This document shows, one piece after another, positions 18,162 through 55,231 of a stretch of 64,000 bases of DNA. The stretch is from Patescibacteria group bacterium (lineage in GTDB: Bacteria; Patescibacteriota; UBA1384; XYA2-FULL-43-10; 1-14-0-10-43-13). The notes beneath the pieces were generated by a model, which saw only the letters and a list, made by a program, of their open reading frames with translations, did not search any database and was not told the origin of the DNA. A program made the position numbers and the translations under genes. The stretch covers positions 85,561 through 149,560 of the forward strand of contig JBAZBD010000001.1 in NCBI GenBank assembly GCA_041671645.1, given 5' to 3'. Each line of letters starts with the position of its first letter. Within the stretch, counting starts at the first letter, position 1.

Positions 18162-18201
18162 GTTCATATTTCGATGATTTTAGGGTAAAATTATAGTAGA
18201 G

Positions 18202-18248: not shown

Positions 18249-18611
18249 ATGTCAAACCCCGACATCTTAAATCTGGAAGAAAGAACCGCAAAATTTGGTG
18301 AGGCGATAATACATTTATGCCAAGAATCAAAGGTAACAATTATTACCGAGCCAATTATACGACAGATAATACGTTCAGCCACGAGTATCGGTGCAAATTA
18401 CATGGAGGCGAATGGGGCCTGCTCAAAGAGTGATTTTAGAAATAAAATCTTTATCTGCAAGAAAGAGACAATGGAGACAAAACACTGGCTGAGAATGCTA
18501 TCGTCAGCTTTACCAGACAAATCCGATGAATTGCGAGAGTTATGGAAAGAAGCGCAGGAGTTAACTTTGATATTTTCTAAAATTGCCGGGTCCTTAAAAT
18601 CTAAAAATTAA
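18249..18611 (+). CDS. Four-helix-bundle protein (23S rRNA intervening-sequence protein family, TIGR02436-like)
   Basis: QIIRSATSIGANYMEANGACSKSDFRNKIFICKKETMETKHWLRML matches the family core (SIGANxAEG...SKxDF...KE..ET..WL). Confidence 0.7.
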   Translation: MSNPDILNLEERTAKFGEAIIHLCQESKVTIITEPIIRQIIRSATSIGANYMEANGACSKSDFRNKIFICKKETMETKHWLRMLSSALPDKSDELRELWKEAQELTLIFSKIAGSLKSKN

Positions 18612-18655
18612 TAATTGATTAAAAAATAGAAATTAATAAATAAGAATTAATTTGA
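18605..18655. repeat. AT-rich repeat family member flanking four-helix-bundle gene (right, inverted and degenerate)
   Basis: Its reverse complement aligns to the left flank (aattctta...ttattaattt...caatt.ttaattt). Confidence 0.5.
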
Positions 18656-21790: not shown

Positions 21791-24700
21791 TTGAGGGATG
21801 TGAAGAAATTTTTGCAAAAATTTGTGTTCACGCTGGTTGCGCTGATTTTGGTGTTGAACCCATATATCGAGCTCATCCCGACAGATTACTTCTCCAGCAA
21901 GGCCAAAGCGGCGATCAACGATATCCCTGATCCAGAGATCGCGTCAACCGATGAGAGCGATCATGATTATGAGGAGGAAGTAGATAGCGATTACACCCCA
22001 GAATACTCTCCGAATTTCATCCCCGACCCAGTCAAAGATGCCTTCTCCCTCGTGGTGACTGATACCACTGAGACCTTTACTGATCTTACCAGCACGAGCA
22101 GTCTGCTTGAAGATATTGGTGATGCCAAAATCATCCTGACCCAGAGTGATTTTGACGCGATCAAGGCCCTTCGTTGCATGAAGAATCTACTCCCGCCATT
22201 CGCCGAGAACATGTCAAAACTCTATGAGTTTACGATTCCCGAGGGTATCATTAATTCTAACGAACAATACAAAAACTTCCCAGCCAAAGAGGAAATTGAC
22301 GATGCAGTCTCTAGTGAGGGATCTCAAGCGACGCCAAGATTCGGCACACCCGAAGAATACCTCTCCTATCTCAAATACGGAGACTCTGGCGACCCGCTCC
22401 TCACCACAAACCAGAACAAGGAAAAATTTGTTAACTATGTTGATTCAGCCAAAGCATATTACGGCGACGATCGCTTAAGGGCAGACTGGCTTGCGCAAAT
22501 CGACAACCTTGCAGAGAACAAAACTCTCGATACCGATATAAATACTCTAGCTTGCGTCACTCGGATTACTGACGCAGAACAGCTGATGGCTCTGATTCGA
22601 GAAAGCAAAACTGATGAGACCAAGCGACAGTACTTGCTCGACAGAATCAATGAGAGTCTAGACGGACTCAAGATTGACATCCGCGCAGTCAAGGCCCTGA
22701 TTTATTTGGTTACGCCTAAGAACAAGGGAGGCGCTGGACACTGGAGAATCCGCGTCAAGAAATTCCTCCAAACTGGCCGCAAATCAGGTGAGTCTGATGC
22801 GTTGCTGACTGGAGCCGCCAAAACAGTGAACTGTGATCCGGCCAAATCCGCCGCTGAATGCGGCATGGCTCAGTACCAACCGGGCGAGGCGACGATAGAA
22901 GAGAAAGATGGTAGCGCCTACACTGCCTATCTAGAGTCTATGAACGACGGTGAGCAAAATGATTCAATGCACCAGCAGGGTCAGGCTATTGATATTTCTG
23001 AGATTGACGACATAAGATGCACGATACGGAAAGAGGTTAAGCAGTGGGGAAATGTTAAGGGCCAGAACACTCCTCAACCAACAAGACCAATTAAGTTGGC
23101 CTGGCAGACTACAGAAGGGTTCAACAAATCAGAGGGTGCCAATGACTTTGATATGATGTCTCTTATCAAATCGATGGCGACCTCCGAGGTGGTCGACTTC
23201 CTGGGCTCGATCAACGAGACTGATATGTCTGACTATGAGGGCGACCTGACCAGAGCCAGTTTTGGAGATCTAGTCAACGTAGTGGGCAAGTCCCTAATGA
23301 CTGAAATTCTCGCTTCGCCTGATCATAATTTGAAGGGCTATAGCACCGACAGCACTCTTAGAAACCTGGGTGGTATCTATATCGCTGACTATCTCGGGAT
23401 TAATCGAAAATTATTTACAGACAAACATATCAACACTCCGGGAGATCTCTTCTATGAAATCGGCCGCGGCGCGATCGAGACTCGGATGAAATTGCCTCTC
23501 AACTCACTCGACACGACCAATCCTGCCGTGCCCCTCTTCTCGACCTTGGCCCAGACAGGAACTAGGAAATTGGAGTATGAATTGGGGCTAGCCAACGGAG
23601 ATCTGGCGCGCCTAGACCCAAACTCGGTTGCCAGCATCTATATTGGCGCCCGTGTGATCGAAGGAACGCTTAATTTCAAGAAATTCGTTTGGCCAAGCCA
23701 GGACAAGCCATTTGCTGAGTTTGCCAGCACAGCAGAGGGTCTGAATTGGTTTGATCTGCTTCGGCTCAGCCCAGACACAATCGACATGATGCTTCACCTG
23801 AAGTCTGGTGTGACTGAAGCCTTGGTCAAGGGCAAGACCTTGACTCCGGCTCAGTATGACAAAATGATGAAGTTGCCCGAGGGCACGACGACAGAGTCAG
23901 TCAAGATGAACTCGGACCGATACGCTAGTATCGTTGGGCAAGTTAGATTGGATGAGACAACTTTTGGCTTTCAATACTTCGCCGCCAACGATGCCGCCTT
24001 CTCCTTGCCAACTGGGCTCTGGGCTGAGGTAATCAAATTTAGCCCAGATACTTTGCAACAGAGCCTCGCTGAAGTCGGAATTTATACGCTCTCTCGACTA
24101 TTCGGCGAAGATGATGCTTCTCCTTTGCCAAAGCTAGAAGTGGGAGAGCAGGTTGTCAGTATCCAGACCCATGAGTACGGCAAGGATGTAACTTTCCAGG
24201 CAAATGATGGTAACTTTGGTCGCTGGGTATTCCGAAGTTGGCTTCGAGACAACCTAACCAAATCAACCGAAGAGGCTTGTCAGGCGCCGGCCCGTCCGAT
24301 TGAGGTTGATGTTTCCTTTGATCAAGCTGGCGCTCAGCAGCCAAATCCAAACAGTCTGCTAGATGTTCAAGCAACTTTTGGAACCAATGTATTCAAACCG
24401 GTCAGTCTAGCTCTAGACTACCAAGTCACCTATAATCCAGCCGCCAATGGCATACCACAGCCTTCGAAAACGCTGACCAAAGACGTCTCTGAGATTAGAC
24501 CAATTTCCGAAGAAAAGGCAACGAAATATGGCTTTGTAAATCGAGACTTACAAAGAATCTTTGGCTGTGCATCAGCCAATGGGCGTGATGTCTACCAGCG
24601 GATAGGCTCTGAGCTCCTCTACACCGCCCTGATCAACCAGGCGCTGAGCGAGACTGACCGCGCCAAGATTGACATTATGGACACCGATCCTACAATTCAT

Positions 24701-27700
24701 GTTGCCAACGAAGAGATCAACTTCTACATCCAACGCATCTTCTATATTAAGAAATTGCTTGGACAGATCGACACCCAATACGGCTCAATCGTATCTGAGG
24801 GCAAAGACGACATTAAATCTTTTGTAGATCTTTCGAAACTATCTTATGACCAGCTCAAACAGGTATATGGAGACCTGACCAATCTCCAACTGTTCTCCAT
24901 CAGCAAAATAGCCGCTACCGCCTCACAGACTATGACCGATATCGACACGCTAAAACAGGTGGCCTCCGATTGGAAAGAGTACATGCGGACACGAAGGGCA
25001 GACTTGGTCGGAGATATAGCTGCCGTCAATCAGATTGTTTATCTCGTCAACGAGCTTTGGACCACTATTGCCGAGCTCGATCGTGGCAAGGCTATTAATG
25101 GTGTTGATCGTATTAAATTTCAGCAGATTGATTCTACTCCGCTACAGGAAGTCGTAAACCAGGACAGAAGACAGCAAGCACAAGAGAGATCAGACTCGGC
25201 CAAGAAAAAGGGCCTCTCTGCTTGGCAGGTTGCACAGATGATGTTCGACTGGATTGCCGGTACGATCACTTCCTCCGAGCTCTTTTATCGCCTGGGCGCC
25301 AACTCGATCGAAGCTAACATCGGCCTTCCGCCCAATAGCCTAGTCTACCTAGTCCGCAATTATGACCAAAATGGCATATCTGGCCTCGACGCCTTTTATC
25401 AATCGGTTGGCCAGGCCAGGATTGAGGAAAATTTTGGCATGCCCGCCTTCTATTTCCAGGGCAACTTTGATGCCCAGGCCAAGCCCAACTTCCAATCTGA
25501 CCTGAAGGCAGTCTACAACATGATTACGACGGATTCTGTGCTTAAGCACGATTATCCCGATCTGGCCGCACTATCCGAAGCAGACTTCCTGAAGTATATG
25601 GATAGCCTGCTCACGGCGCCGATGCTCGATTATGCCGCCGATCCCTGGATACAGCTTATCAGGACCCCCGGTAGTCCATATTCGATCAGTAGTGAGCCCA
25701 AGACCCCAGGTGATGATCTCAATGCCTACAAGGCCTTCTACAAGAAAATCGCCGATAGTCAAAAAGCTTATACCAAGAGCACGGCTCATTGGCAGGCAAT
25801 TGTTGACAATGTCGACAAACGTTGGAAAGCCAAGCGCGCCAGTGATGTCAAGGGATTGGGCAGTAGCAAGTACAGCGAATCAACAGTCCAAGACATCGTA
25901 GCAAATATCAAACAGCGCTGCTTCACTGGTGTAAACAAAGCTCAAGCGGATGGTACAGTGAAATGTCTCAATATGACTCGGTCCCCCGAGGATGATCTCC
26001 TTTTCCGTATGGGTCTCCCGCGTGGAAACTTTAACGCTATGACCGCAGAGAATTCAGTCAACAACACGTCCCTCTGGACTCGACTAGCAGGCACTACTCA
26101 GTCAATCGAGCAGGGATTCACAATCGATCAAAACGCGATCAAAGCCCTCTTTACCGGAGAAGATACTCGCTATATTAATCTTTCCCGAAAAGAGAAGCAG
26201 GTGGTCGAGGGTTCTGCTCTCAAAATCAATACCAACGTACTAAGTTTCTACGCTCAGATGCTTAATGGTGAGGTTCTGCCCAACGACACAGATCAGTATA
26301 ATTTGGACACTTGGACTCAGTACTACGTCAGCAACCCGTATGCACCGAAACAGCAAGCCAGTGAGACTTGCCCAGTTCTTTATTTGCCAAAAGGTGACGC
26401 AAGCGGCACCTTTATGGTCAATGAGACTACCCTTGAAAACAATTCATACTGCTATTATGACGCCAAGGGAAGACACTGCTTCAAGAGTTGGGATGAAGCC
26501 CAGCGCTATGCCATTGCCCACGAAGCCGACTCGATAAGACATCTGAAAGTCGTGATAGACGGCAAAGAGCAGGAAATTAGCAACAATATTCTGGGATATC
26601 TTGCCAATCAACTTGTTCTGGCCAACAATGCCGCTTTACCTGACCAAGCGACCACAGATGCCGCCGCAAATGCAAATGTCACCATCCATGGAACTATCGA
26701 ATTAAATCTGAGTGATGTCTACGCAGGACTGGTCAGATTTGTGAATGACAACTCGATGGTCGATATCTTTGGGGATAAGAACAAGAGTATAGCCATGATT
26801 TCGGCCATCGCTGGCTCGACGACTGTGCCGGCTAGTATACTAGAAAAGCTTTTTACTCGTGAACCGAGCGTAAATTCCGTCGCCACTTTCAAGAAGAAGG
26901 TTGGTGTCAAGGAAGCACAAAAAGTTGTCACTTACCAAATTTTTGGAGCTTTGCAACTTGGCCTCGCCGTTGGGCCGGACTACTTCGACGCAGGCGACCT
27001 CTATGATGTCTTGAACGGCGACTACACTGCGCTGACCAACATCGCGACCAATTATATTGATCTGAAGGCTGAGCTGAAGCCTGGCACAACACGTCTTCTC
27101 TACGAAGCTCGCAATCCAGAATCAATTACTTGCGCCCTCGCCCAAGCTGGTGGCTCAATGCTCGGTCGGATCTTTGGCCTCAACAATATTCCGCTCAATG
27201 GGATCCAAAACGTCTCATCATTTAAAGAAGCGGTCGGTCAAGCCAAGGTCGAGGAGACCCTCTCCCTGCCTCGAGGTACCTTCAGGGGCAACAATCTGTA
27301 TGAACTGCTCGACAATGTCGGACCGATCAACTTCATGATCGCCTTTAAGATACCGGTTGACCCATCAGTTGCGAATGGGATTTCTGACGATATCGACAAG
27401 ATACTCAACTCCAACACTAGCTACTCTCAGGGAGCCAATTTGGCCTATCGCTTGACTCGGGTAAGAGATGTTCTCTCGACTCGCAATATTCTTCAAAGTG
27501 ATATTGGCACAGCCATCGCCAATATCAACAGCGCTCTCAAAAATTATTTCATCAATGATCTGCTCAAACAATTTGAAAATGATCCGACCAAGATCCAAGT
27601 TGCCCTGTCGGCCCGTAATCAAAACAATAGAGATTGGTATTATGCGGTCCAGGATTTCTATCAGCAGACCAGTTCACTGGACAAAACTTTTGCGGTCAGC

Positions 27701-30700
27701 AACGGTAGCACTTATCAGCTTCTAACCAACTCGATCAAGCCAAAAACCTATATCAATCGAATTGGCGAGAATCTCATGGTCACTGCCGCCATTTCCAACG
27801 CCGCCACTCTGCTTGGGATTTCCGACGCGAAAGTTCAGGCAGCAGCCGGCGTCCTGGGTGCAATCAAGAACAATTTTGTCTGCGAGAAAAGCAAGATCAT
27901 CACCAGAGATAATTATCCATCAAACGGCGTTTCTGACGGACATTTTCTCTACGATGTGCAAGTAAACAATATCAAAAATGACTACTGGGAACAGTATCTC
28001 AGAACCGGCAAACATACTTATGACGATGTTGGCTTTCCCGTCTTGGTTTATGATGAGGTTGGCGCTGCAATCGGCTACTGTAGCGATGACACTTATGGCC
28101 AATTCGGCGAACTGTATACCAATCTTAATACCCTCTTCGGCTTCAATCTTGATGACAGGATGAATTTGCCGGAAGGCACGATCAGCAAAGTTCTATCTGA
28201 CCCCGACCACATCGTCGATAATATATTGAATATCGGACTCAGCAAACTTGACCAACAACTTGGACTTGACTATACCGTGGACGGTTCTTTCTCATTCAAT
28301 GGCTTCTGGAAAGCGACCTTTTACAAGGACGGCCAGAAGAAGGACGCAGAGAGAGAAAAAATCGACAGAAAGTGCTACAGCCAAAGTTATCCAGGGGGGA
28401 CAGACGTCGCCATCAAAACTCAGTATGACGCTGCCAACAACGATATTAAGCGATTGCTCGGAGAGTGGCCGGCCCGAGGAGCTTCACGGATCGAGGGCGA
28501 AAATTACCAGCAGTACTCGCAGAGAGTAACTTCTCAAGCCACTTTGGACGCCACTCACACTACTGAGATGCGGGACGCTTGGGTTAGCGATTGGGAAAAA
28601 TACAATCAGCAGGCTAACACTGCTAGCGGCAATATTACTATCCAAAACAATGCCTTTAATCAATGTAAGCTCGACAACAGGAAGCCAGTAAGTAACGCGG
28701 CGTTACGAGCAGATATTCTTGACTACGCCACCGGCCAACTTGTCACTTTGACTGGCAAACTACTGCGAGACGTTGTCGTTACGATTCCTGATTGCCAAAA
28801 CAATCGCGCCGCTTATCTTGACGGGGCAGGCAGCTATGACCCCGTTCTCTCCAACCAGCTTGATTATTTCGGCCAGCCTATTGGCTATGAAGAGTGCAAA
28901 GCCAAGGTCGGTGTTGTTGTTCCGAGAGAAGATTTGAAAGCACTTATCCAGGGCGACCTTCGCTATCTTTCCCCGATTGCCATGACAATCGCTTCAAACA
29001 TCGCCATGATACCGGTAGACATGTGGGGCACGGATAACTGCAATCCAGACGCCGATGGCCGATGTGAGAGTGCCGTTCCACCTCAATTCAAGCTCAGTTA
29101 CAACGACTACAAATATGCCATTTTTGGCAACGCTCAGTCCGACCAAGCGGCTCGGGACGTCGCCGCTTATAGTCACTTCAACTTAATTGAAAAAAACCCT
29201 GACGGCGTACGCATCAACTCAGGGCCGGAGTATCCTGTCTCTACTGATCCCTTCGACACGGGTCTTGGCATACTTTCAGATACCAGGGTGGCAAAAGTAG
29301 CGAATCAACCTGGCAGAGAGATTATCAACAACAAGACTGATATCTACACACAATACGGCTATACCCCAAGTAGTGCCGAGGCTGTCGATGCAATCAGCCA
29401 ACGAGCCGATTTGCAAAACAGCGTGGCCGACTTTGAAAACGCTTGCGGCATCAAGTATGGGCTTATCAGCAACAGCGCGGCGACTTGCCACAATGGGTCA
29501 CCAGAGTTTGCGGCCTATATTTCAGATAGAACTCAATTAACCGCACTAAGAGATAGGGAGACTGCGATTCTAGGCGAATCAAAGAACCTCTACCGAAACA
29601 ACTTGATGTACAAGGCGATAGACATAGCCGCCTGGAAACTTGATGGCAACGCCTATCCTGGATTTGCTCGCGCAATCGCAATCGGCACTCCCAAAATGAA
29701 GGCAGAGGCCCTTGTCACTTATCTCAAGATTGGTGCTCAGAGAGGCCATCTCTTCGGCATGGATTTCAGAGCAGTCAAAGATATCGAGCAGTGGGCCGGG
29801 GCCGCTCAATTTCTCTACGAGGCTGGGCAAAATATTCTTCGCGATACGGATACGTTTGACCCCCTAAGCACTCTTGCCAAGAATCCTAGCGCTCGATATT
29901 TCATCCAAGATTTTATCGTCTCTCGCTCAAAGGCCTGGTTTGGCTTCGAGATCCAACCAGACATGGCTGAGGGTATTATAGTCGGCATTGGTACTATGGG
30001 CTCAGCCGACCATCCTTGGGGCAATTGGGGGATCAAGGATGTCGGCATCGACAAAGTTTTTGAGGACCCGAACAACACGGGCGTCACTATTAATGTTGGA
30101 GGAGACAAGACAGTCCAGATGAAGACTCTGGGCGGAGCAACACAAGAGTATCTGGTCGACCGTCTTTTCTCCTGGGCCGACACCAAACTTGGTCTCGAGG
30201 CAGGCACTTCCTTCAAGCTCGCCAAGGGCATATATGACGCTTTCACTGCTTACGGCAAAGTATCTGCCGCCATCAAGGCCGCCAAGCTGGCTGGTTGGGT
30301 TGTGCCAAACTTGCCTCATACTGCCGCTGGCCTGGAAGCGATAGCCGACACTCTTTTCGATAAAGCAGACGCGTTAGCTTTGGATATAACAGACGCAGAA
30401 CTTTCGGCAAGCCTAACAGGGGCTGACGCTAACCAAATCGTTTATGAGAATACCGGATTTGATGGCGTAGACGCAGGAGAAAAAGCTGCCGAGGATGCCA
30501 AAGCTGCCTCTAAGACTATAAATACCGAGGGAACCAAATTCCAAGCTGCCAAAGACCTTGTTGCGGCCATAATCATTGAAATCTTAATTGGTAAAGCGCT
30601 TGGCAAAATCGTGGCCGGTTGGGAACAGGATCTTGGTATGATCCCTGGCACTCTGATGCCACTGGTTTCTGGTATTGTCACTTTCGTGTTTATCTTCGTC

Positions 30701-31282
30701 TGGAATACGGTGATGGCCACGATTGGAGCGGAGGTATTAATGCTATCCCAGGTGCCAGGACTTCAGTGGCTTGCTATAGCAATAGCCGTCATCGGTTTCA
30801 TTGGTGGGATGCTCTTTAGCACTAAATATTTCTACTGGTGTACTGCCGATGGATACTACCCAAGAGTTGGGTCTTTTGATTACAACAAGGACGTGGGTGG
30901 ATTTGGAGAAATAGGCGGACGAATCGATCGCGGCGCAGCCTTCTTGGGACCGCTCATGGCAACTTATGGCGTGAAAGTGGCACAATACAAAGCTCGCCAA
31001 TTGGTTGGCGACATGCTGGCTCTGCAAAACTCTCCTCGATTCAAAGATTCATATGGCGACGATATCGTACCAATCCAAATCATGACTGGTCGCAAAGTTG
31101 ATGTTGATTTCTGGAAAGAGAGCATTGATACCAATATGTGCAAGAAGATGCTTGATGAAGATTACATCGCCTGTGACGGCATGTGCGGCAAAGCGACTAG
31201 CGATGGCGGCTGTGTCAGTACTTCCCGTATGGGCGTCTGGGCCAATCCACAAACGATAGGCTGGACGCATATTGGATTTTAG
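21791..31282 (+). CDS. Giant (3163 aa) membrane-anchored surface protein
   Basis: Single uninterrupted ORF with an N-terminal hydrophobic signal/anchor and a C-terminal cluster of TM helices (GIVTFVFIFVWNTVMATIG, LQWLAIAIAVIGFIGGMLF). No recognisable catalytic motif; it is in an operon after the T4SS genes. Confidence 0.7.
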   Translation: MRDVKKFLQKFVFTLVALILVLNPYIELIPTDYFSSKAKAAINDIPDPEIASTDESDHDYEEEVDSDYTPEYSPNFIPDPVKDAFSLVVTDTTETFTDLTSTSSLLEDIGDAKIILTQSDFDAIKALRCMKNLLPPFAENMSKLYEFTIPEGIINSNEQYKNFPAKEEIDDAVSSEGSQATPRFGTPEEYLSYLKYGDSGDPLLTTNQNKEKFVNYVDSAKAYYGDDRLRADWLAQIDNLAENKTLDTDINTLACVTRITDAEQLMALIRESKTDETKRQYLLDRINESLDGLKIDIRAVKALIYLVTPKNKGGAGHWRIRVKKFLQTGRKSGESDALLTGAAKTVNCDPAKSAAECGMAQYQPGEATIEEKDGSAYTAYLESMNDGEQNDSMHQQGQAIDISEIDDIRCTIRKEVKQWGNVKGQNTPQPTRPIKLAWQTTEGFNKSEGANDFDMMSLIKSMATSEVVDFLGSINETDMSDYEGDLTRASFGDLVNVVGKSLMTEILASPDHNLKGYSTDSTLRNLGGIYIADYLGINRKLFTDKHINTPGDLFYEIGRGAIETRMKLPLNSLDTTNPAVPLFSTLAQTGTRKLEYELGLANGDLARLDPNSVASIYIGARVIEGTLNFKKFVWPSQDKPFAEFASTAEGLNWFDLLRLSPDTIDMMLHLKSGVTEALVKGKTLTPAQYDKMMKLPEGTTTESVKMNSDRYASIVGQVRLDETTFGFQYFAANDAAFSLPTGLWAEVIKFSPDTLQQSLAEVGIYTLSRLFGEDDASPLPKLEVGEQVVSIQTHEYGKDVTFQANDGNFGRWVFRSWLRDNLTKSTEEACQAPARPIEVDVSFDQAGAQQPNPNSLLDVQATFGTNVFKPVSLALDYQVTYNPAANGIPQPSKTLTKDVSEIRPISEEKATKYGFVNRDLQRIFGCASANGRDVYQRIGSELLYTALINQALSETDRAKIDIMDTDPTIHVANEEINFYIQRIFYIKKLLGQIDTQYGSIVSEGKDDIKSFVDLSKLSYDQLKQVYGDLTNLQLFSISKIAATASQTMTDIDTLKQVASDWKEYMRTRRADLVGDIAAVNQIVYLVNELWTTIAELDRGKAINGVDRIKFQQIDSTPLQEVVNQDRRQQAQERSDSAKKKGLSAWQVAQMMFDWIAGTITSSELFYRLGANSIEANIGLPPNSLVYLVRNYDQNGISGLDAFYQSVGQARIEENFGMPAFYFQGNFDAQAKPNFQSDLKAVYNMITTDSVLKHDYPDLAALSEADFLKYMDSLLTAPMLDYAADPWIQLIRTPGSPYSISSEPKTPGDDLNAYKAFYKKIADSQKAYTKSTAHWQAIVDNVDKRWKAKRASDVKGLGSSKYSESTVQDIVANIKQRCFTGVNKAQADGTVKCLNMTRSPEDDLLFRMGLPRGNFNAMTAENSVNNTSLWTRLAGTTQSIEQGFTIDQNAIKALFTGEDTRYINLSRKEKQVVEGSALKINTNVLSFYAQMLNGEVLPNDTDQYNLDTWTQYYVSNPYAPKQQASETCPVLYLPKGDASGTFMVNETTLENNSYCYYDAKGRHCFKSWDEAQRYAIAHEADSIRHLKVVIDGKEQEISNNILGYLANQLVLANNAALPDQATTDAAANANVTIHGTIELNLSDVYAGLVRFVNDNSMVDIFGDKNKSIAMISAIAGSTTVPASILEKLFTREPSVNSVATFKKKVGVKEAQKVVTYQIFGALQLGLAVGPDYFDAGDLYDVLNGDYTALTNIATNYIDLKAELKPGTTRLLYEARNPESITCALAQAGGSMLGRIFGLNNIPLNGIQNVSSFKEAVGQAKVEETLSLPRGTFRGNNLYELLDNVGPINFMIAFKIPVDPSVANGISDDIDKILNSNTSYSQGANLAYRLTRVRDVLSTRNILQSDIGTAIANINSALKNYFINDLLKQFENDPTKIQVALSARNQNNRDWYYAVQDFYQQTSSLDKTFAVSNGSTYQLLTNSIKPKTYINRIGENLMVTAAISNAATLLGISDAKVQAAAGVLGAIKNNFVCEKSKIITRDNYPSNGVSDGHFLYDVQVNNIKNDYWEQYLRTGKHTYDDVGFPVLVYDEVGAAIGYCSDDTYGQFGELYTNLNTLFGFNLDDRMNLPEGTISKVLSDPDHIVDNILNIGLSKLDQQLGLDYTVDGSFSFNGFWKATFYKDGQKKDAEREKIDRKCYSQSYPGGTDVAIKTQYDAANNDIKRLLGEWPARGASRIEGENYQQYSQRVTSQATLDATHTTEMRDAWVSDWEKYNQQANTASGNITIQNNAFNQCKLDNRKPVSNAALRADILDYATGQLVTLTGKLLRDVVVTIPDCQNNRAAYLDGAGSYDPVLSNQLDYFGQPIGYEECKAKVGVVVPREDLKALIQGDLRYLSPIAMTIASNIAMIPVDMWGTDNCNPDADGRCESAVPPQFKLSYNDYKYAIFGNAQSDQAARDVAAYSHFNLIEKNPDGVRINSGPEYPVSTDPFDTGLGILSDTRVAKVANQPGREIINNKTDIYTQYGYTPSSAEAVDAISQRADLQNSVADFENACGIKYGLISNSAATCHNGSPEFAAYISDRTQLTALRDRETAILGESKNLYRNNLMYKAIDIAAWKLDGNAYPGFARAIAIGTPKMKAEALVTYLKIGAQRGHLFGMDFRAVKDIEQWAGAAQFLYEAGQNILRDTDTFDPLSTLAKNPSARYFIQDFIVSRSKAWFGFEIQPDMAEGIIVGIGTMGSADHPWGNWGIKDVGIDKVFEDPNNTGVTINVGGDKTVQMKTLGGATQEYLVDRLFSWADTKLGLEAGTSFKLAKGIYDAFTAYGKVSAAIKAAKLAGWVVPNLPHTAAGLEAIADTLFDKADALALDITDAELSASLTGADANQIVYENTGFDGVDAGEKAAEDAKAASKTINTEGTKFQAAKDLVAAIIIEILIGKALGKIVAGWEQDLGMIPGTLMPLVSGIVTFVFIFVWNTVMATIGAEVLMLSQVPGLQWLAIAIAVIGFIGGMLFSTKYFYWCTADGYYPRVGSFDYNKDVGGFGEIGGRIDRGAAFLGPLMATYGVKVAQYKARQLVGDMLALQNSPRFKDSYGDDIVPIQIMTGRKVDVDFWKESIDTNMCKKMLDEDYIACDGMCGKATSDGGCVSTSRMGVWANPQTIGWTHIGF

Positions 31283-31287
31283 CGGTT

Positions 31288-31308
31288 CTTCCCCTTTTGA
31301 AGGGGAAG
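31288..31308. terminator. GC-stem hairpin terminator after giant gene
   Basis: cttcccctt-ttg-aaggggaag has a 9-bp stem. A near-identical copy is at 39521-39541. Confidence 0.55.
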
Positions 31309-31408
31309 TTAGATGGGGTTTATAATAAGCCTCACCTACCCTCTGCTTGCCGGCCGTAGCCTTGGCGAAGGCTGGCCACTCTGCCACTCGTTCTGTTACA
31401 ATCTATTC

Positions 31409-32751: not shown

Positions 32752-33861
32752 TTAGGATTCTAGCTTGAGCGGCATGATGATGTAGGTGTAATCCTCATCC
32801 TTTTTACCCTTGAAGACTCCAGCCGACGCATTGTCGTTGAATCCCAAGACGATTTGGTCATCCCCGGCTACAGCGAGGAAATCTAGAATATAGCGTGCGT
32901 TAAATGAGATCTCGAGAACGCCGCCGCTGACTTCAGCCTCAATCTCCGACCTGGCAGAGCCAGCCTGTGAGGCTGCCGACAGAATAGAAATTCCCTTCTC
33001 GCCGACTACAACCTTGATATTATTGTTGGCCGTATCCTTGGCAAAAAGAGAGGACATTTTCACGGCCGAAGCCAATTCGGCTAATTTGACAGTGGCCTTG
33101 ATCTTGGAACTATTGGGGATGATAGCCTGATAATTTGGATACGTACCCTCGATCAAACGTGAGGTGATGTGGGTATCACCGATTAGGAACGAGACTTGGC
33201 TGTCAGAAGATAATATCTTAACCTCTTCGGCGTGCTCGGTCGAAGCCAAAATTCTGAGAACTTCAGTCATGGTCCGGCCAGGGATAATCATGTGGTGCTG
33301 TGCAAACTTGGCGGCTAGTTTGATCTTCTTCTCGGCCAGTCGATAAGAATCAGTGGCGGCTAATATTAATTCATCTTCCTTGACGGAGAAATAAATACCG
33401 GCCAGGACTGGGCGCGTCTCGTCGGTAGCTGGGGCAACTGCTACTTTCTTCAGCGATTCGATAAAAAGGTTTTTGTTAATAACTACTGGTTCGGTCTTAG
33501 GAGCCTCAGGAATAGTTGGGAACTCTTCGGCGGCAATACCTTGGATCTTGGCCTCAAAATGGCTAGACTTGAGCTCTGCGGCCGTCCCGGTGGTGATAAT
33601 CTCAATGGATTCATCCTTATTATTCAAGACAAAGTCAGAGAGAAGCCTTGCGGGAAGAGTAATCTCCCCTTCCTCTTCAACCTTCCCAATAGTCTGGGTG
33701 GTGACGCCAACTTCCAAATCGGTCGCCGAGAATTTTATTTTTCCCTTTTCGGCTTTGATGTGGATATTGGACAAGACTGGCAATGTCGTCCTGGCGCCAA
33801 CTATCCGGCTGGTCGCTCCCAATACTTTAGCGATGTTTGATTGCAAAAGTATCACTTTCAT
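32752..33861 (-). CDS. dnaN: DNA polymerase III beta subunit (sliding clamp)
   Basis: 369 aa in three domains with a typical N-terminus (MKVILLQSNIAKVLGATSRIV) and the synteny dnaA-dnaN-recF. Confidence 0.9.
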   Translation of the reverse strand: MKVILLQSNIAKVLGATSRIVGARTTLPVLSNIHIKAEKGKIKFSATDLEVGVTTQTIGKVEEEGEITLPARLLSDFVLNNKDESIEIITTGTAAELKSSHFEAKIQGIAAEEFPTIPEAPKTEPVVINKNLFIESLKKVAVAPATDETRPVLAGIYFSVKEDELILAATDSYRLAEKKIKLAAKFAQHHMIIPGRTMTEVLRILASTEHAEEVKILSSDSQVSFLIGDTHITSRLIEGTYPNYQAIIPNSSKIKATVKLAELASAVKMSSLFAKDTANNNIKVVVGEKGISILSAASQAGSARSEIEAEVSGGVLEISFNARYILDFLAVAGDDQIVLGFNDNASAGVFKGKKDEDYTYIIMPLKLES

Positions 33862-34273: not shown

Positions 34274-35662
34274 TCAACTGTAGGAAGTAAATATTCTATC
34301 TTTAATCACTGTCAGATCTTCTTTTAATCTTGGATCAGTAGCAATAGACTTTCCAATCTTCTGTTCTCCATGCATGATAGTGGAGTGATCTTTGCCACCC
34401 ATCTTCCTGCCTATTTCTGGATAGGAGAGGCCACACTCGCTTCGAAGCAGATACATGGTGATCTGTCTGGGGAATACTAATTCTTTTGTTCTTTTCTTGC
34501 CGAGCAAATCCTCGATCGGAATCCGGAAATACTTATGAACCTCACGGATAACTAACTCTGCGGTGACGTGTTGCTGTTTTTCTTCGATAATCGAATCTAA
34601 TATCTTAGCTGTCTGCTCCATATTCAATTCACAGTGCATAAGTTCGCAGGTGGCCAGCACTTTATTGAGAGCACCTTCGAGCTCGCGGACGGATGATTTA
34701 ACTCTCTCTGCGATGAAAGTAATAATCTTGTCGTCAACTTTGAGATTCATCCGCTCAGCTTTTTGTCTCAGAATCGCTTCTCTTGTTTCTAGATCTGGGT
34801 GGCCAATATCGCAAACCATACCGCCTTCAAAACGAGTCTTGAGTCTGATTTCTAGGCCCTTAATATCCTTTGGGACTCTATCCGAAGTCAAAACAACTTG
34901 TTTCTTGTTTTGGTGCAAATGATTGAAGGTGTGGAAGAATTCGTCCTGGGTTTGCTCTTTGGTGGAGAGAAACTGAATATCATCAATTAAAAGTAGGTCG
35001 ACGGTGCGGTATCTGTTTTTGAAATCCTTGGCTTTACCAAAACCTGATCCAACAGCTTGGATGAAGTCATTGGTGAAGGTCTCGGTCGAGACATAGAGGA
35101 CTTTCTTGTCGGGGAAGCGTTTCAGATAGGCGTGGCCGATTGCTTGCATCAGGTGGGTCTTGCCCAGGCCAGAGTCGCCGTAGATAAAGAGTGGATTGTA
35201 TTGCGTTCCTGGTTTTTCTGAGACGGCGTTGGCGGCGGCGAAAGCCAGTTGATTGGAAGGGCCAACTACAAAATTATTGAAGATATAATTATCATTCAGG
35301 GAAGAATTCTGCGGCAAAGGGACGGGGATTTCTCTATCCACAGTTAGGGTAGGTTTATCCACAGGCTTGTGGATAATTACCCCAGATTCGAGGTCTACCA
35401 CCTGGTCGGGGTCTGGGTTGGCGATCTTGAATTTGATCCCCAAAATGGCCTCATCAACCTGATTTTGAAGAGCTTTCTGGATTTCTTTGAGATGCTTCTT
35501 TTTTAGCCAATCTTCGACGAAGAAAGTAGGCACTCCGATCGTAAAAACACCTTTTTTGTAATCAAAAATGAAGGTTCTCTTGAACCAAGTTTCAAAGTTT
35601 GGCTTCGACAGAGTGACCTGAAGTTCGCCCAAAGTGTTTCGCCAGATTTCTGTTAGATCCAT
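34274..35662 (-). CDS. dnaA: Chromosomal replication initiator protein DnaA
   Basis: AAA+ Walker A GDSGLGKTHLMQAIG, box VII, and the C-terminal helix-turn-helix region (KRTKELVFPRQITMYLLRSECGLSYPEIGRKMGGKDHSTIMH). Confidence 0.95.
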   Translation of the reverse strand: MDLTEIWRNTLGELQVTLSKPNFETWFKRTFIFDYKKGVFTIGVPTFFVEDWLKKKHLKEIQKALQNQVDEAILGIKFKIANPDPDQVVDLESGVIIHKPVDKPTLTVDREIPVPLPQNSSLNDNYIFNNFVVGPSNQLAFAAANAVSEKPGTQYNPLFIYGDSGLGKTHLMQAIGHAYLKRFPDKKVLYVSTETFTNDFIQAVGSGFGKAKDFKNRYRTVDLLLIDDIQFLSTKEQTQDEFFHTFNHLHQNKKQVVLTSDRVPKDIKGLEIRLKTRFEGGMVCDIGHPDLETREAILRQKAERMNLKVDDKIITFIAERVKSSVRELEGALNKVLATCELMHCELNMEQTAKILDSIIEEKQQHVTAELVIREVHKYFRIPIEDLLGKKRTKELVFPRQITMYLLRSECGLSYPEIGRKMGGKDHSTIMHGEQKIGKSIATDPRLKEDLTVIKDRIFTSYS

Positions 35663-35928
35663 GATTATCCAATCGGTTATTTCCTAGTCGTAGAAAATAT
35701 AACAAGTTATCCACAAGGAGCGCAATGGTAGGGGCTTCGAGGCATTTATAATCAGCTTCCAGCCGATTGAATTGTTAATTTCTAATTACCCCCAAAGGGG
35801 AGCCTTCGGCTTAATTTCCAATCAATTTATATTTATTAATTAATAATTGAATAAAAATTAAGAACTAAAAAATAAGAATCACTGATTGGGTTGATTTTCT
35901 CTCATCTTTCTGTTATTATCCCTCTGTT
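35663..35928. promoter_or_regulatory. dnaA-rpmH divergent intergenic region with consensus DnaA boxes (dnaA promoter/second oriC module)
   Basis: A perfect TTATCCACA lies at 35707-35715 and TTATCCAAT at 35665-35673. The region also contains the mini-hairpin motif and the AT-rich repeat. Confidence 0.6.
35821..35868. repeat. AT-rich inverted repeat, left copy (flanks rpmH-rnpA-yidD)
   Basis: 35834-35868 is the exact reverse complement of 36782-36816 (35/35). The match extends with one or two mismatches to roughly 48 bp. Confidence 0.8.
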
Positions 35929-36069
35929 ATGGCAACATTTGGAACATATCAACCGAAGAAGAGACGCCGACAACGCGTCCATGGATTTTTGAAGAGGATG
36001 GCTACATTAAATGGCCGTCTCGTTTTGAGTCGCCGAAGAGCCAAAGGCCGCAAAGAACTCGCAGTATAA
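35929..36069 (+). CDS. rpmH: 50S ribosomal protein L34
   Basis: [46 protein letters not shown]. The ORF is under 60 aa and so absent from the ORF track. Confidence 0.9.
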
Positions 36070-36180
36070 GAAAATGAGCAGAAATAGCTCATTTTTTTGT
36101 TGGGAAAAATCCAAATATTGAACTCGCAGTAATAAGTTAATTTACTTGGCAACGAGCGTAATTCGTGCTATGTTCTCTTT

Positions 36181-36543
36181 ATGTTACCGAAGAAAAACAG
36201 AATAGTGGCCAAGGATTTCAAGAAGCTCAAGCTTTTCAAGAAGGGCACAGTTTCTGGTAAGCTTTCGTTCAAATTAAAGGAAAGCGGCCAGGTTAATCCT
36301 TCGAAATTTGGCTTTGTCGTCTCCAACAAGATTAGCAAAAGGGCGACGGACAGAAATGCTCTAAAGCGCAAACTCCGAGCGATGGCTTGGGATGTTCTGC
36401 CACAAATTGGCAACGGCAAAGAGATAATCGTCTTTGTAAAAAGTGCTTTCGCCAAGCCTTATAACTTTGCTGAAATCAAAAGTGAATTTGATCGCGGCTT
36501 GGCTAATATTGGTTTGATTTATGTTCAAAAAAATAATCGTTAG
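36181..36543 (+). CDS. rnpA: Ribonuclease P protein component
   Basis: 120-aa basic protein (KRATDRNALKRKLR) in the conserved rpmH-rnpA-yidD-yidC synteny. Confidence 0.8.
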   Translation: MLPKKNRIVAKDFKKLKLFKKGTVSGKLSFKLKESGQVNPSKFGFVVSNKISKRATDRNALKRKLRAMAWDVLPQIGNGKEIIVFVKSAFAKPYNFAEIKSEFDRGLANIGLIYVQKNNR

Positions 36544-36754
36544 AACAATTGAGTTGTATCAGCGGACACTGAGTCCTGATCACGGTTGGCGTAAAGGCCT
36601 TTATCCTGTAGGATATTGCAGGTATACTCCTTCTTGCTCTCAGTATTTCAAGGAGGCAGTGATCAAAAAGGGAGCGCTTCGTGGCTCCGTCCTCGGAATC
36701 TGGCGAATCATACGTTGCAATCCCTGGAGTAAGGGAGGACATGACCCCGTCTAA
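36521..36754 (+). CDS. yidD: Membrane protein insertion efficiency factor YidD
   Basis: YQRTLSPDHGWRKGLYPVGYCRYTPSCSQY with the conserved Cys motif. It overlaps the rnpA end. Confidence 0.85.
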   Translation: MFKKIIVRTIELYQRTLSPDHGWRKGLYPVGYCRYTPSCSQYFKEAVIKKGALRGSVLGIWRIIRCNPWSKGGHDPV

Positions 36755-36781
36755 AGACGAAAGTAGTAAGTTTTTAGTTTC

Positions 36782-36829
36782 TAGTTCTTAATTTTTATTC
36801 AATTATTAATTAATAATTATAAATTGATT
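36782..36829. repeat. AT-rich inverted repeat, right copy
   Basis: tagttcttaatttttattcaattattaattaataa. See the partner at 35821-35868. Confidence 0.8.
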
Positions 36830-36862
36830 AGAAATTAGAAACTAATAAATAGAAATTATTTT

Positions 36863-37747
36863 ATGAAACAATTCTTTTTCGTTCTTCTCTATCAACCGCT
36901 CTACAATTTACTTATCTTCTTGGCTTGGTTGGTGCCGGGACACTCTATCGGTTGGTCAATTATCGTCTTGACCATCCTGATCCGGCTTGCCCTTCTCCCC
37001 TCCTCGCTCAAAGCGGCTCATTTTCAGGCCAAAAACAACAAGCTTCAGCCTCATGTCAACAAAATTCGCAAGGAGATTACCGACAAACAGGAGCAGACCA
37101 AAGCGATCATGGAGCTTTACAAAACTGAGGGTCATTCCCCTCTCGGCTCCTGCCTACAATCGCTGATCCAACTGCCGGTCTTGATCGTGCTCTACAATGT
37201 ATTTCGTAGCGGGTTGAACGAAACAGGATTCAAAGACCTATACTCTTTCACCCCTCATCCTGACACGGTTAACACTATGTTCTTCGGTATGAATATAGTT
37301 CACCCAGATCTTTGGGCGCTACCAATTATCGCTGCTGTGCTCCAATTTGGTTTGTCATACCTCATGATGCCAAAGAAAATCGAAGGCGCACCAGATGATC
37401 CAGCCGCCGCTATGAGCAAACAGATGCTTTTCTTGGGCCCGATTATCACCCTATTCTTCGGCCGAAGCATGCCAGCCGCCTTGGTAATTTACTGGATTGT
37501 AACGACTCTATTTAGTTTGGTTCTCCAATATTTCGTCAACAAGCAGATACATGCAACTCCGCTAGTTCGAGATGGCGGCAAGGCTTTGCCAGCTCCAAAA
37601 GTGGAAAAAGCAGAGAAGATAGAGCCCGTCAGAATCGAAAAGCCAAGCAAGAAAGAAATGCTTTATAATATCATGAACAAACGCCTCGACAAAAAAGAGA
37701 AGAAGTCGGGTGTCAATGTGACTGTGCGCACCAAGAAGAAATGGTAA
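36863..37747 (+). CDS. yidC: Membrane protein insertase YidC (short form)
   Basis: IVLTILIRLALLP and LQPHVNKIRKE followed by QLPVLIVLYNVF are conserved YidC/Oxa1 motifs. Five TM segments and a basic C-terminal tail. Confidence 0.85.
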   Translation: MKQFFFVLLYQPLYNLLIFLAWLVPGHSIGWSIIVLTILIRLALLPSSLKAAHFQAKNNKLQPHVNKIRKEITDKQEQTKAIMELYKTEGHSPLGSCLQSLIQLPVLIVLYNVFRSGLNETGFKDLYSFTPHPDTVNTMFFGMNIVHPDLWALPIIAAVLQFGLSYLMMPKKIEGAPDDPAAAMSKQMLFLGPIITLFFGRSMPAALVIYWIVTTLFSLVLQYFVNKQIHATPLVRDGGKALPAPKVEKAEKIEPVRIEKPSKKEMLYNIMNKRLDKKEKKSGVNVTVRTKKKW

Positions 37748-37811: not shown

Positions 37812-37901
37812 GGAAGGTTGGCAGAGTGGTTTATCGCGCTGGTCTCGAACACCAGTTGGGCAGCAATGTCCTCAGAGGTTCAAATCCTCTACCTTCCGCC
37901 A
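37812..37901 (+). tRNA. tRNA-Ser (anticodon CGA)
   Basis: GGAAGGT acceptor stem, anticodon loop CTCGAAC, long variable arm, TTCAAAT T-loop and encoded CCA. Confidence 0.85.
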
Positions 37902-38667: not shown

Positions 38668-39497
38668 ACGAGAAAACTACCAAATCTCTTCCGGTCTGGT
38701 TTTTCACCAATGAGAAACTTGGCCAATTTTTTGCAAAAAATGAACACAATCAACCGATCGAAAGAGTTTACGCAATTGGTGGAGCTGGCGATTTCGCCTT
38801 CTCGCTTCTGGCACAAGACGTACGAAACAAGATTAAAGAAATTGATCTTTGTGATATTAGACCGATGGCAAATGTGACAATTGATCTCAAAATCGCGCTA
38901 TTTAAGAATTATGATTTATCACAAATTAAAAGTTTGTTTTGGGGTCGAAGCGAAGATACGCTCGGCTCTATTTACGCTAAATTGAAGTCAACGCTTCCGC
39001 CTGCGGTGCTAAGTGCGGTCAAAAAAAGCGGGGCGGGGAAGTTTTCCGAAAGTTTGAAAAAATCAGGTTTGTGGTACAGGGAAAGTTGGCGAAAAGCCAA
39101 GGATGTTGAGGGCTATCTCCCCTATCTCTCCTCGGAATCGAACTATCGCCTGATGCAGAAAAATCTAGATAAAATTGTGATTCACGAGGGTGATTTTAAT
39201 GATAATCTTAAGTCTGCCGGCGATGGATATTACGACCTGATTTATTGCTCAAATATCTTGGATAGTGAGACGTACTGCAAATTTCCCGACCAGTATCTGC
39301 AAAATATCCAGGCAAAGCTAAAGGACGGCGGCATTTTATTTGTCCTTACTCAAAATAATCCGAAAAAGATGATCAAACTGATTGAAAAGCAGGGCATTCA
39401 TTCACTAAGATCGGAACTGCACAAATTCTCCCCTCTATCTCTCTTGTCCAATCATTATTCGTACTCAATTCTACTTTTTCAAAAAGCGGAAAGGTGA
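38664..39497 (+). CDS. Hypothetical protein, possibly class I SAM-methyltransferase fold
   Basis: Weak motif-I-like VYAIGGAGDFAFSLL, DLIYCSNIL and GGILFVLT. Start overlaps the upstream gene's stop. Confidence 0.35.
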   Translation: MNEKTTKSLPVWFFTNEKLGQFFAKNEHNQPIERVYAIGGAGDFAFSLLAQDVRNKIKEIDLCDIRPMANVTIDLKIALFKNYDLSQIKSLFWGRSEDTLGSIYAKLKSTLPPAVLSAVKKSGAGKFSESLKKSGLWYRESWRKAKDVEGYLPYLSSESNYRLMQKNLDKIVIHEGDFNDNLKSAGDGYYDLIYCSNILDSETYCKFPDQYLQNIQAKLKDGGILFVLTQNNPKKMIKLIEKQGIHSLRSELHKFSPLSLLSNHYSYSILLFQKAER

Positions 39498-39520
39498 GGT
39501 TGGAGATAAACCCCTTCTAG

Positions 39521-39541
39521 CTTCCCCTTGAAAAGGGGAAG
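39521..39541. terminator. GC-stem hairpin (cttcccctt-gaaa-aggggaag)
   Basis: 9-bp stem downstream of the 38664-39497 gene. It is paralogous to the hairpin at 31288. Confidence 0.5.
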
Positions 39542-39555
39542 AACTACTCTGTCCC

Positions 39556-41235
39556 TTGGACACTTCGTTGTTGTATAATGAATTTATGGTTGATATCAAC
39601 AACACAATTAGCTTTCTGACGCGGGAGCAGGAGGAGAGGCACACCAAAGAAACCGCTGCTAAGCTCAAGCTTCCCTATATGAATCTGGTCAATTACCCGA
39701 TCGTCAAGGAGGTTTTGGAAGTCATCCCAGAGGAGGATGCGATTGCTTACCAAGTCGCGCCATTTCTGAAGGTGGGGCATCAGATTAGGATAGGGATGGT
39801 TGACCCAACAAATGAGAAATCTAAGGCATATTTGAGCAAAATCGCTGAGGAAAAGAATGTTTCTTTTGCCGTCAGTTTGGTCTCCAAGACCAGCTTCATC
39901 TTTGGTGTCTATGCTTACGAACAGATCAAAACCAAAGCGATCGAAACAAAAGCAGAAGAAGAAAAACGAAAAGAAGATAATTCTTTCTACAATATCAAAG
40001 ACATCAAGGGCGCGGCCGAGGCGGCCAAGACGGCTACGATCACTCGGCTCCTTGAGACGATCCTCTTTGGTGCGATCAATCTGGGCGCTTCTGATGTTCA
40101 CTTGGAGCCGGCTGAAAACAAGTTTTTAGTCAGACTCCGAATAGATGGTGTGCTTCAGGATCTAGTAGACTTACCCTTACAAAAATATAAGCAGCTGCTC
40201 CAACGTATTAAGTATGTGGCCAAGCTCCGAATGGATATTACGGACAAACCGCAGGATGGACACTTCTCACTGGCTAGCCCGGACAACAAAAGTCTTGATT
40301 TTCGTGTTTCTACTATGCCATCAGCTTCAGGCGAAGCAGTCGTGCTCCGTCTCCTTAACATGGAGGGAGATTTCTTGAAGCTCGAAAATATGGGCTTTCG
40401 CCCGGATGCGCTGGTGGCGATTCGAGAGGCAATAGGCCGCCCACATGGCATGGTCATCACTTCTGGCCCGACAGGATCGGGCAAGACCACAACTCTCTAC
40501 GCACTTCTTTTGGAGATCAAAAAGCCAGGGGTCAAAATAATTACATTGGAAGACCCAGTAGAGTTCAAGATGGAAGGGATCGAACAGAGCCAGATCAAGC
40601 CTGGACAGGGCTACGAATTTGCCGATGGCCTCAGGGGCTCGATGAGACAGGATCCAAACGTCTTGATGGTAGGAGAGATTCGAGACTTGGAAACGGCGGA
40701 AATCGCCATCCAGGCCGCTCTGACGGGGCATTTGATGCTCTCTACCATCCATGCCAACTCTGCGCCAGCCGTCTATGCCCGCTTCCTCGAGATGGGGGTC
40801 AAGCCTTTTCTTCTGACTGGCTCACTCAACATTATTATGGCTCAGCGCTTGGTTCGTCGAATTTGCAAAGATTGCGCCACTCAATATGAAGCTTCCGACA
40901 AAGACTGGAAAGCGATCGTGGATATCTTGTCTCCTATCGTCGAACGACTGGATCCCGCAATTGCGGTCAAACTTGAAAACGGCCAGAGGACACTTTTCCA
41001 GGCCAAAGGTTGCTCAGTTTGTAGTAGTACTGGCTATGTTGGGCGAGTGGCAGTAGTCGAATATATTGTGCCAAATGATACAATCGAAGGCCTTGTAACA
41101 TCAGGAGCTTCTATATCAATGTTCGACAAAGAAGCCCGCAAGGAGGGTATGATTACGATGGAGCAGGACGGCCTGATCAAAGCTCTTGCTGGTATTACAA
41201 CGCTAGATGAAGTCTGGCGCGTCACGCGCAGTTAA
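39556..41235 (+). CDS. pilB: Type II secretion/type IV pilus assembly ATPase (GspE/PilB family)
   Basis: N-terminal GspE_N-like domain, Walker A GPTGSGKTTTLYALL, Asp/His boxes (MVGEIRDLETAEIAIQAALTGHLMLSTIHAN) and a tetracysteine motif (CKDC...CSVC). Confidence 0.85.
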   Translation: MDTSLLYNEFMVDINNTISFLTREQEERHTKETAAKLKLPYMNLVNYPIVKEVLEVIPEEDAIAYQVAPFLKVGHQIRIGMVDPTNEKSKAYLSKIAEEKNVSFAVSLVSKTSFIFGVYAYEQIKTKAIETKAEEEKRKEDNSFYNIKDIKGAAEAAKTATITRLLETILFGAINLGASDVHLEPAENKFLVRLRIDGVLQDLVDLPLQKYKQLLQRIKYVAKLRMDITDKPQDGHFSLASPDNKSLDFRVSTMPSASGEAVVLRLLNMEGDFLKLENMGFRPDALVAIREAIGRPHGMVITSGPTGSGKTTTLYALLLEIKKPGVKIITLEDPVEFKMEGIEQSQIKPGQGYEFADGLRGSMRQDPNVLMVGEIRDLETAEIAIQAALTGHLMLSTIHANSAPAVYARFLEMGVKPFLLTGSLNIIMAQRLVRRICKDCATQYEASDKDWKAIVDILSPIVERLDPAIAVKLENGQRTLFQAKGCSVCSSTGYVGRVAVVEYIVPNDTIEGLVTSGASISMFDKEARKEGMITMEQDGLIKALAGITTLDEVWRVTRS

Positions 41236-55230: not shown

Positions 55231-55231
55231 T

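Follow-up and report, generated by a model that had tools for sequence, protein, structure and literature searches.

An inverted repeat around rpmH, rnpA and yidD in a Patescibacteria genome as a probable pair of dispersed palindromic repeat copies

Within a 64,000-nt stretch of contig JBAZBD010000001.1 from a Patescibacteria group bacterium (the window, whose first letter is position 1), two long complementary sequences stand on either side of the genes rpmH, rnpA and yidD beside dnaA, which raises the question of what placed them there. The initial annotation of this locus had described a 35-bp perfect inverted repeat and had offered three explanations, namely a stem formed in a read-through transcript, a pair of insertions resembling miniature inverted-repeat transposable elements (MITEs) and a recombination site at the origin. 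We consider it very likely that the two arms are copies of one intergenic repeat, small, AT-rich and palindromic in itself, which is dispersed in Patescibacteria genomes. The MITE-like insertion pair is thus the suggestion that fits best, as both a sequence model (R1) and a scan with the repeat core identify the arms as copies of a multi-copy palindromic intergenic repeat.

Inverted repeat and repeat element in the window

The arms span 35812-35878 and 36771-36837, 67 nt each and complementary at 62/67 positions (93%), with a perfect 35-nt run at 35833-35867 versus 36782-36816. The perfect repeat reported initially is therefore real and its right-hand coordinates stand, while the left-hand ones (35834-35868) are one base off; its imperfect extension, put at roughly 48 bp, exists and is longer than claimed. 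Once a 24-nt insert in arm 1 (35788-35811) is skipped, complementarity resumes at 35772-35787 and 36833-36848. Searching the window with the 35-mer at up to three mismatches gave three matches against 0.00 expected from 100 dinucleotide-preserving shuffles, so chance is not the explanation of the repeat; the search also matched a diverged copy at 18215-18249, inside the left half of the long form listed below. Gene coordinates confirm that the repeat encloses exactly rpmH, rnpA and yidD and sets them apart from yidC. What had been overlooked is that each arm is also a palindrome by itself and that further copies lie at 18215-18249 and 55152-55233.

The element to which the arms belong is about 90-113 nt long, AT-rich and near-palindromic, and its short form holds no open reading frame (ORF). 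Its left arm is (AATTTnT)n and its right arm TTGATT(AGAAATT)n; between them lie, in this order, the core TTAATTTTTATTCAATT(T/A)TTAAT and a variable centre. The AGAAATT heptamers of the right arm are complementary to the AATTTnT heptamers of the left. The family consensus (alignment A2) reads (T)AATTTnAAATTTTTAATTC - TTAATTTTTATTCAATTTTTAAT - variable centre - TTTGATTAGAAATTAnAAATTAnAAATT. Model R1, a sequence-only model built from 22 copies of other genomes with no window sequence included, finds four loci in the window, all of them between protein-coding genes, and they are listed here followed by the insert nested in arm 1:

35770-35881, minus strand: arm 1, element copy in the dnaA-rpmH spacer (R1 33 bits, E=2.8e-9)
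36768-36857, plus strand: arm 2, element copy that fills the yidD-yidC spacer (R1 37.6 bits, E=1.1e-10)
55152-55233, minus strand: diverged element copy whose right arm abuts the start of an efp-like ORF (54584-55147, minus strand) (R1 34 bits, E=1.4e-9)
18201-18647, plus strand: long-form element, a split copy (R1 model positions 5-69 and 27-111 either side of an ORF)
35788-35811, plus strand: GC-rich double mini-hairpin ACCCCCAAAGGGGAGCCTTCGGCT, 24 nt, nested in arm 1 with TAATT on either side

Compared with the family consensus, arm 1 and arm 2 lack the same part of the centre, and in alignment A1 each is most closely related to the other, which indicates a recent duplication or gene conversion; such an event would suffice to produce the 35-bp perfect repeat. 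No other family member in that alignment, arm 2 included, has the 24-nt insert of arm 1. The predicted folding energies of single copies lie between -18 and -23 kcal/mol (z about -4), with about 30-31 interrupted base pairs; arm 2 reaches -20.4 kcal/mol (z=-4.06) and the element of L026 -22.4 kcal/mol (z -4.1). RNAalifold returned no consensus structure on alignment A1, the centre of which is gap-rich.

GC-rich double mini-hairpins of about 24 nt were also seen between genes at 62127-62151 and 2794-2819 and in L037 (Berkelbacteria). They have the pattern stem-RAA-stem followed by stem-TTCG/TTTG-stem, which did not occur in shuffled controls, and similar GC-rich hairpins break up element copies of other phyla (L054, L073, L077, L093).

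Dispersal of the family and occupancy in relatives

The species-representative genomes, one per species and without the source genome among them, were scanned with the 21-base core TTAATTTTTATTCAATTNTTAA common to three window copies. Of 76 loci obtained, 61 also share about 100 nt of flanking sequence, and the remaining 15 (Bacteroidota, archaea, a phytoplasma and others) have nothing in common beyond the pattern. Named Patescibacteria lineages account for 48 of the 61, several genomes having multiple matches: Levy-, Blackburn-, Curtiss-, Davies-, Shapiro- and Roizmanbacteria, Saccharibacteria, and further Berkel-, Gribaldo-, Campbell-, Falkow- and Andersenbacteria. The element was found in at least a dozen candidate phyla. 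Another eight are metagenome-assembled genomes (MAGs) labelled Gammaproteobacteria. These 'uncultured Gammaproteobacteria' MAGs (L017, L019, L024, L025, L033, L052, L054, L060) carry a typical Patescibacteria element; they may be mislabelled, or else the element may be able to pass from phylum to phylum. A 25-mer specific to the window had no match in a metagenome scan, so that the source contig is absent from that collection too.

Applied to 568 kb of fetched loci, R1 gave 119 matches corresponding to about 80 unique copies; for the 630 kb of DNA covered in all, the number of unique copies is likewise about 80. Copies can be dense: MAG CSMAG_1580 has seven exact-core matches, and the first 8 kb of a Shapirobacteria MAG (L031, 1-8000) hold six unique copies by nhmmer, or about eight with partial covariance-model matches, in successive spacers of the secY-adk-infA-rpmJ-rpsM ribosomal-protein operon. 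There the element widens the gaps between normally tightly packed genes by about 110 nt. Relative to flanking genes, 23 copies are antisense and 11 sense, which rules out the idea of a one-way promoter whose arm is always aimed at the downstream gene. One copy lies between convergent genes and five to six between divergent ones, small numbers that rest on heuristic ORF calls. The family has no Rfam match in the window or in 18 sampled loci, and a literature search on the motif and on MITEs or intergenic palindromic repeats of the candidate phyla radiation (CPR) found no description, which, coverage being incomplete, is weak evidence of novelty; the repeat family appears to be undescribed so far.

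Relatives of the locus were retrieved through RnpA and DnaA homologues (L002, L004, L081, L082, L083 and L085/L086). All six keep the gene order and orientation of the window, and in none of them is there a long inverted repeat around rpmH-rnpA-yidD or complementarity between the dnaA-rpmH and yidD-yidC spacers. In the closest, L081, DnaA protein identity is 97% and nucleotide identity only about 78%, and its alignment with the window is interrupted over the span of arm 1 (35757-35888); its dnaA-rpmH spacer has an unrelated, GC-richer insert there, and its yidD-yidC spacer is short. Weak, diverged heptad hairpins are present in the dnaA-rpmH spacer of L082 and L004 and in the yidD-yidC spacer of L002 and L085. 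As only some relatives have them, occupancy is patchy and these spacers are perhaps favoured sites.

The palindrome of the yidD-yidC spacer differs in every relative (in L081 it is located at about 2000-2080). L002 has (GAATCAG)x3...(TTAATTC)x4 at 1140-1222, L004 a 24+24-nt palindrome at 2937-2984 and L085 a 21-nt hairpin of AATTAAG heptamers at 3912-3970. This spacer seems to attract or retain hairpins.

We propose that two young, near-identical copies came to occupy neighbouring spacers, dnaA-rpmH and yidD-yidC, in opposite orientations. Opposite near-identical copies produce a 67-nt, 93% inverted repeat with no further cause needed, and with dispersed copies as its origin the bracketing of rpmH-rnpA-yidD would be a by-product rather than the mark of a functional unit. 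The element would behave as a MITE or as a selfish repeat of the repetitive extragenic palindrome (REP) type. Arm 2 is probably part of the rnpA-yidD-yidC transcript and would there form a hairpin by itself, with about 30 interrupted base pairs; it is plausible that this predicted hairpin is an RNase III substrate.

Several results weigh against this reading or limit it. No target-site duplication was found at the element copies, whose ends are fuzzy because the number of heptamers varies; with at most 78% nucleotide identity, the related loci are too distant for empty sites to be defined, and a TAATT/TAATT duplication was seen only around the nested 24-nt insert. No transposase or REP-associated tyrosine transposase (RAYT) gene was found either, so that only the copy number, the patchy occupancy and the similarity of copies within a genome point to mobility. 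A copy number of about 50 for the source genome is a guess extrapolated from four per 64 kb. As the relatives have at most about 78% DNA identity, recent gain is inseparable from loss, and their weak heptad hairpins may mean that the sites are long-standing or preferred, so that a local function is conceivable. At the RNA level, function of the element is not supported. Transcribed and non-transcribed strands did not differ in folding (18 vs 16, p=0.41), and in the long forms G.U pairs are not in excess on the ORF strand (76 G.U vs 79 A.C).

The 'sense' strand of the element does fold better (-18.2 against -13.7 kcal/mol, with wobble-type mismatches at 65 against 31), in a comparison among related copies whose core was fixed by the search. 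The better-folding strand tracks the element's own orientation, not transcription. Selection for an mRNA hairpin, examined by the G.U wobble test, was rejected, with no RNA-specific signal in short or long forms.

Transcription signals and rival explanations

The genes and signals around the arms are as follows:

32752-33861, minus strand: dnaN
34274-35662, minus strand: dnaA
35707-35715, plus strand: perfect DnaA box TTATCCACA, invariant in the window, L002, L004, L081 and L082
35891-35919, plus strand: rpmH promoter-like site TTGATT-17 nt-TATTAT (consensus scan)
35929-36069, plus strand: rpmH
36073-36097, plus strand: terminator-like hairpin ATGAGC/GCTCAT + T7, 3' of rpmH (read from the sequence)
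36146-36174, plus strand: rnpA promoter-like site TTGGCA-17 nt-TATGTT, ATG at 36181 (consensus scan; kept in L002)
36181-36543, plus strand: rnpA
36521-36754, plus strand: yidD
36863-37747, plus strand: yidC, short
37812-37898: tRNA

Gene orientation flips within the dnaA-rpmH spacer, and the next plus-strand gene upstream of arm 1 is more than 3 kb off. Arm 1 ends 12 nt upstream of the rpmH promoter-like site, which, together with the ATG 10 nt further on, is kept in L002, L004, L081 and L082, the DNA upstream of it not being kept. The DnaA box sits in a conserved, element-free block by the dnaA start on the far side of arm 1, so that arm 1 would have a promoter region on either side, the two being divergent, and probably goes untranscribed. 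The terminator-like hairpin behind rpmH is kept in L002 and appears in L004 as GTAAGT/ACTTAC, a compensatory change, with a T run; our terminator scan had overlooked it because it has fewer than three G-C pairs.

For a stem of the kind proposed initially, a transcript would have to start upstream of arm 1 and run into yidC, whereupon RNase III would cut a 67-bp stem and free rpmH-rnpA-yidD. Exactly three genes are bracketed, and the arms are indeed paired in both the minimum-free-energy and the centroid fold of a hypothetical RNA 35765-36870, so the claim that a read-through transcript forms a long stem holds as far as folding is concerned; such a transcript is itself unlikely, however. The conserved -35/-10 of rpmH lies 3' of arm 1, no plus-strand gene is near upstream, the conserved hairpin stands behind rpmH, and a promoter-like site of its own precedes rnpA; the conserved promoter and the hairpin together make a common transcript, and with it an operon-wide stem, unlikely. 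Self-folding of each arm would also come first, and the arm sequence recurs in many unrelated spacers. The initial annotation had named loss of complementarity in related genomes as an argument against a processing stem, and it is lost in 6/6 relatives. We regard a stalk like those of rRNA operons as extremely unlikely here. The element might alternatively act as an expression module, through AT-rich DNA that is curved or resembles an UP element or through an (AGAAAUU)n leader, with arm 1 serving dnaA and/or rpmH and arm 2 serving yidC. In most copies 0-12 nt separate the element's end from a start codon, a Shine-Dalgarno sequence is missing from many of the genes downstream, copies sit in the spacers of an essential ribosomal-protein operon, copies in convergent spacers are rare (one, against five to six in divergent ones), and heptad hairpins of a related kind turn up in these two spacers in some relatives as well. 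Against these points, both orientations occur (23 antisense, 11 sense), no conserved sigma-70-like hexamers are found within the element, the convergent/divergent contrast consists of small numbers from noisy ORF calls, and L081, the closest relative, expresses the same genes without the element, which leaves this module unlikely.

Homologous recombination can occasionally take place between inverted repeats of this length (35 bp perfect, 67 bp at 93%), and RecA or a site-specific recombinase could in principle flip the 0.9-kb rpmH-rnpA-yidD cassette beside the origin. Both ends of the Logan contig L001 lie inside the arms, and the orientation is undecidable from that assembly. Gene orientation is nevertheless identical in 6/6 relatives, and no recombinase is found among the neighbours, which besides dnaA, dnaN, yidC and the tRNA are an ORF without Pfam match and a methyltransferase; the recombination site at the origin that had been suggested finds no backing in either result. 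An inversion would moreover part rpmH from its conserved promoter context, and the dispersed family already accounts for the repeat, so that an invertible segment is very unlikely. Almost certainly wrong, finally, is an origin role in which arm 1, in the dnaA-rpmH spacer, would be the AT-rich oriC unwinding element and arm 2 would be a second site. The perfect conserved DnaA box 100 nt from arm 1 and the flip of gene orientation in that spacer speak for it; the family, however, is dispersed and mostly far from dnaA, L081, L083 and L085 have no element in the dnaA-rpmH spacer, and DnaA boxes are few and the GC-skew signal weak. Neither the clustering of DnaA boxes nor the GC skew is strong enough to locate oriC.

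Neither an operon-level RNA structure nor an origin feature nor a DNA switch should be seen in the 35-bp repeat; read as two copies of the dispersed element, the pair itself is an ordinary outcome. Repeats of this element break short-read assemblies, and mis-joins in assembled genomes are possible. Contig L001 (970 bp, sample SRR18595301) has both ends inside the two arms, where the repeat evidently broke the short-read assembly, and is for the same reason uninformative on the orientation of the segment.

Further observations concern the surroundings. Both rpmH and rnpA (35914-35931; 36169-36183) start 7-10 nt past the predicted -10 without a Shine-Dalgarno sequence, an arrangement kept in the relatives, which suggests that their mRNAs may be leaderless or near-leaderless. 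Three DnaA boxes, two of them perfect, lie in the 5' part of the dnaA coding sequence (35334-35376), and a box pair is also present in L004. A two-hairpin motif of about 69 nt, AGGTGAGGyTTATTATAAACCCCATCTAACTTCCCCTTCAAAAGGGGAAGAACCGC, occurs at gene 3' ends in the window (31281-31349, minus strand; 39476-39566, plus strand) and in L004 (3925-3993). It has no Rfam match at gathering score, and the L004 and window copies are 93% identical in DNA that is otherwise only about 75% identical; the motif may be a conserved small RNA or terminator module. A single 3163-aa ORF fills 21791-31282 (plus strand), and ORFs of about 2800 aa are likewise found near dnaN in L083 and L085. At gathering score Rfam reports only tRNAs in the window, and a permissive search of 35700-36900 returned just a chance-level SraG match (E=0.88).

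Long form and comparison with known systems

The long-form element of the window consists of a left arm and core (18201-18269), an ORF (18249-18611) and a right arm (18563-18647). The ORF matches Pfam PF05635 (23S_rRNA_IVP, for 23S rRNA-intervening sequence protein), with E=7.9e-13. The same layout is found in L013, L019 and L056, where an ORF of 112-120 aa starts 0-25 nt past the core and is followed by the right arm. A metagenome scan with an alignment of these four PF05635 proteins (window, L013, L019, L056) gave at least 504 relatives. Among the best 80 of these at least 504 loci, nearly every ORF has heptamer arrays upstream and complementary ones downstream, as judged by eye, the heptamers varying by subfamily (AATTTTC/GAAAATT, AATTTTG/CAAAATT and others). 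Complementarity of arms within a locus was merely 19.6, against 17.5 between loci, a comparison flattened because most loci share one heptamer type; we therefore adopted a variant-match test. The dominant heptamer variant is equal in both arms at 25 of 37 informative loci against 11.4 +/- 2.5 by permutation, a covariation that may rest on few independent events and to that extent counts with the reservations above, and the two large heptamer classes are never mixed.

Intervening sequences (IVSs) of rRNA genes offer a precedent for this architecture. The Coxiella IVS is described as a selfish element with a 28-bp terminal-inverted-repeat stem and an ORF for the S23p four-helix bundle in its loop; its tandem heptamers vary in number between strains, and RNase III cuts within the stem (PMC4990558). 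ORFs of 23S_rRNA_IVP are known from insertions in CPR 16S and 23S rRNA (PMC11270868) and also occur wedged between genes of cas operons (PMC3936711).

By analogy, the window element may be an IVS-type or MITE-like stem-loop repeat in protein-gene spacers, and its short copies are most likely ORF-less derivatives of the long form. No rRNA gene was found as host of the element by Rfam in the window or the 18 sampled loci, and no ORF with an RNase III signature in the 64-kb window, a sample so small as to be uninformative. A wider proposal, possible but on balance doubtful, is that of a Patescibacteria-wide IVS-type family, in which the rRNA IVSs would be just the rRNA-resident subset of a far larger population of hairpin elements settling in intra-operon spacers, with PF05635 as mobility or maintenance factor and the ORF-less copies as intercistronic joints cleavable by RNase III.

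What makes the element of interest is that a conserved unit of about 100 nt fills spacers, even in ribosomal-protein operons, of genomes known as streamlined, and that its long form links it with the PF05635/S23p protein and the rRNA IVSs. To our knowledge, the origin and function of rRNA IVSs have been unclear for decades. The element provides an abundant and concrete system in which the spread of IVS-type elements and their possible processing by RNase III can be studied.

Set beside the RNase III stalks of 16S and 23S rRNA, the locus agrees in that long complementary sequences flank a gene set. The stalks, however, are co-transcribed and conserved with covariation, whereas here arm 1 lies 5' of the promoter and complementarity is found in 0/6 relatives. 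With REPs and bacterial interspersed mosaic elements (BIMEs) served by RAYTs, the element shares its nature as an extragenic palindrome in intra-operon spacers in either orientation; it differs in being about 100 nt instead of 20-40 nt long and AT-rich, with no RAYT gene seen nearby, and it is rare at the 3' ends and convergent spacers that REPs favour.

Like MITEs, the element is short and non-coding, has complementary terminal arms and occurs in many dispersed intergenic copies (four loci per 64-kb window; six in 8 kb of L031). Nested insertions and a longer, ORF-bearing relative with equal ends are found here as with MITEs, Correia elements and enterobacterial repetitive intergenic consensus (ERIC) repeats. 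Correia elements are transcribed into hairpins that are cut by RNase III. In contrast to MITEs, the long form here encodes PF05635, which has no known transposase activity, in place of a transposase, and in contrast to all three the ends are heptamer arrays instead of a unique terminal inverted repeat.

The 23S rRNA IVSs of Coxiella, Leptospira and Salmonella resemble the element in sequence architecture: both have a terminal-inverted-repeat stem of about 28-31 bp (predicted here), both build it from tandem heptamers in variable number, and both may carry a PF05635/S23p ORF in the loop. Whereas IVSs reside in helix 25 or 45 of 23S rRNA, the element resides in spacers of protein genes, where it is multi-copy and mostly ORF-less. 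IVSs as a class are regarded as selfish and horizontally spread (PMC4990558).

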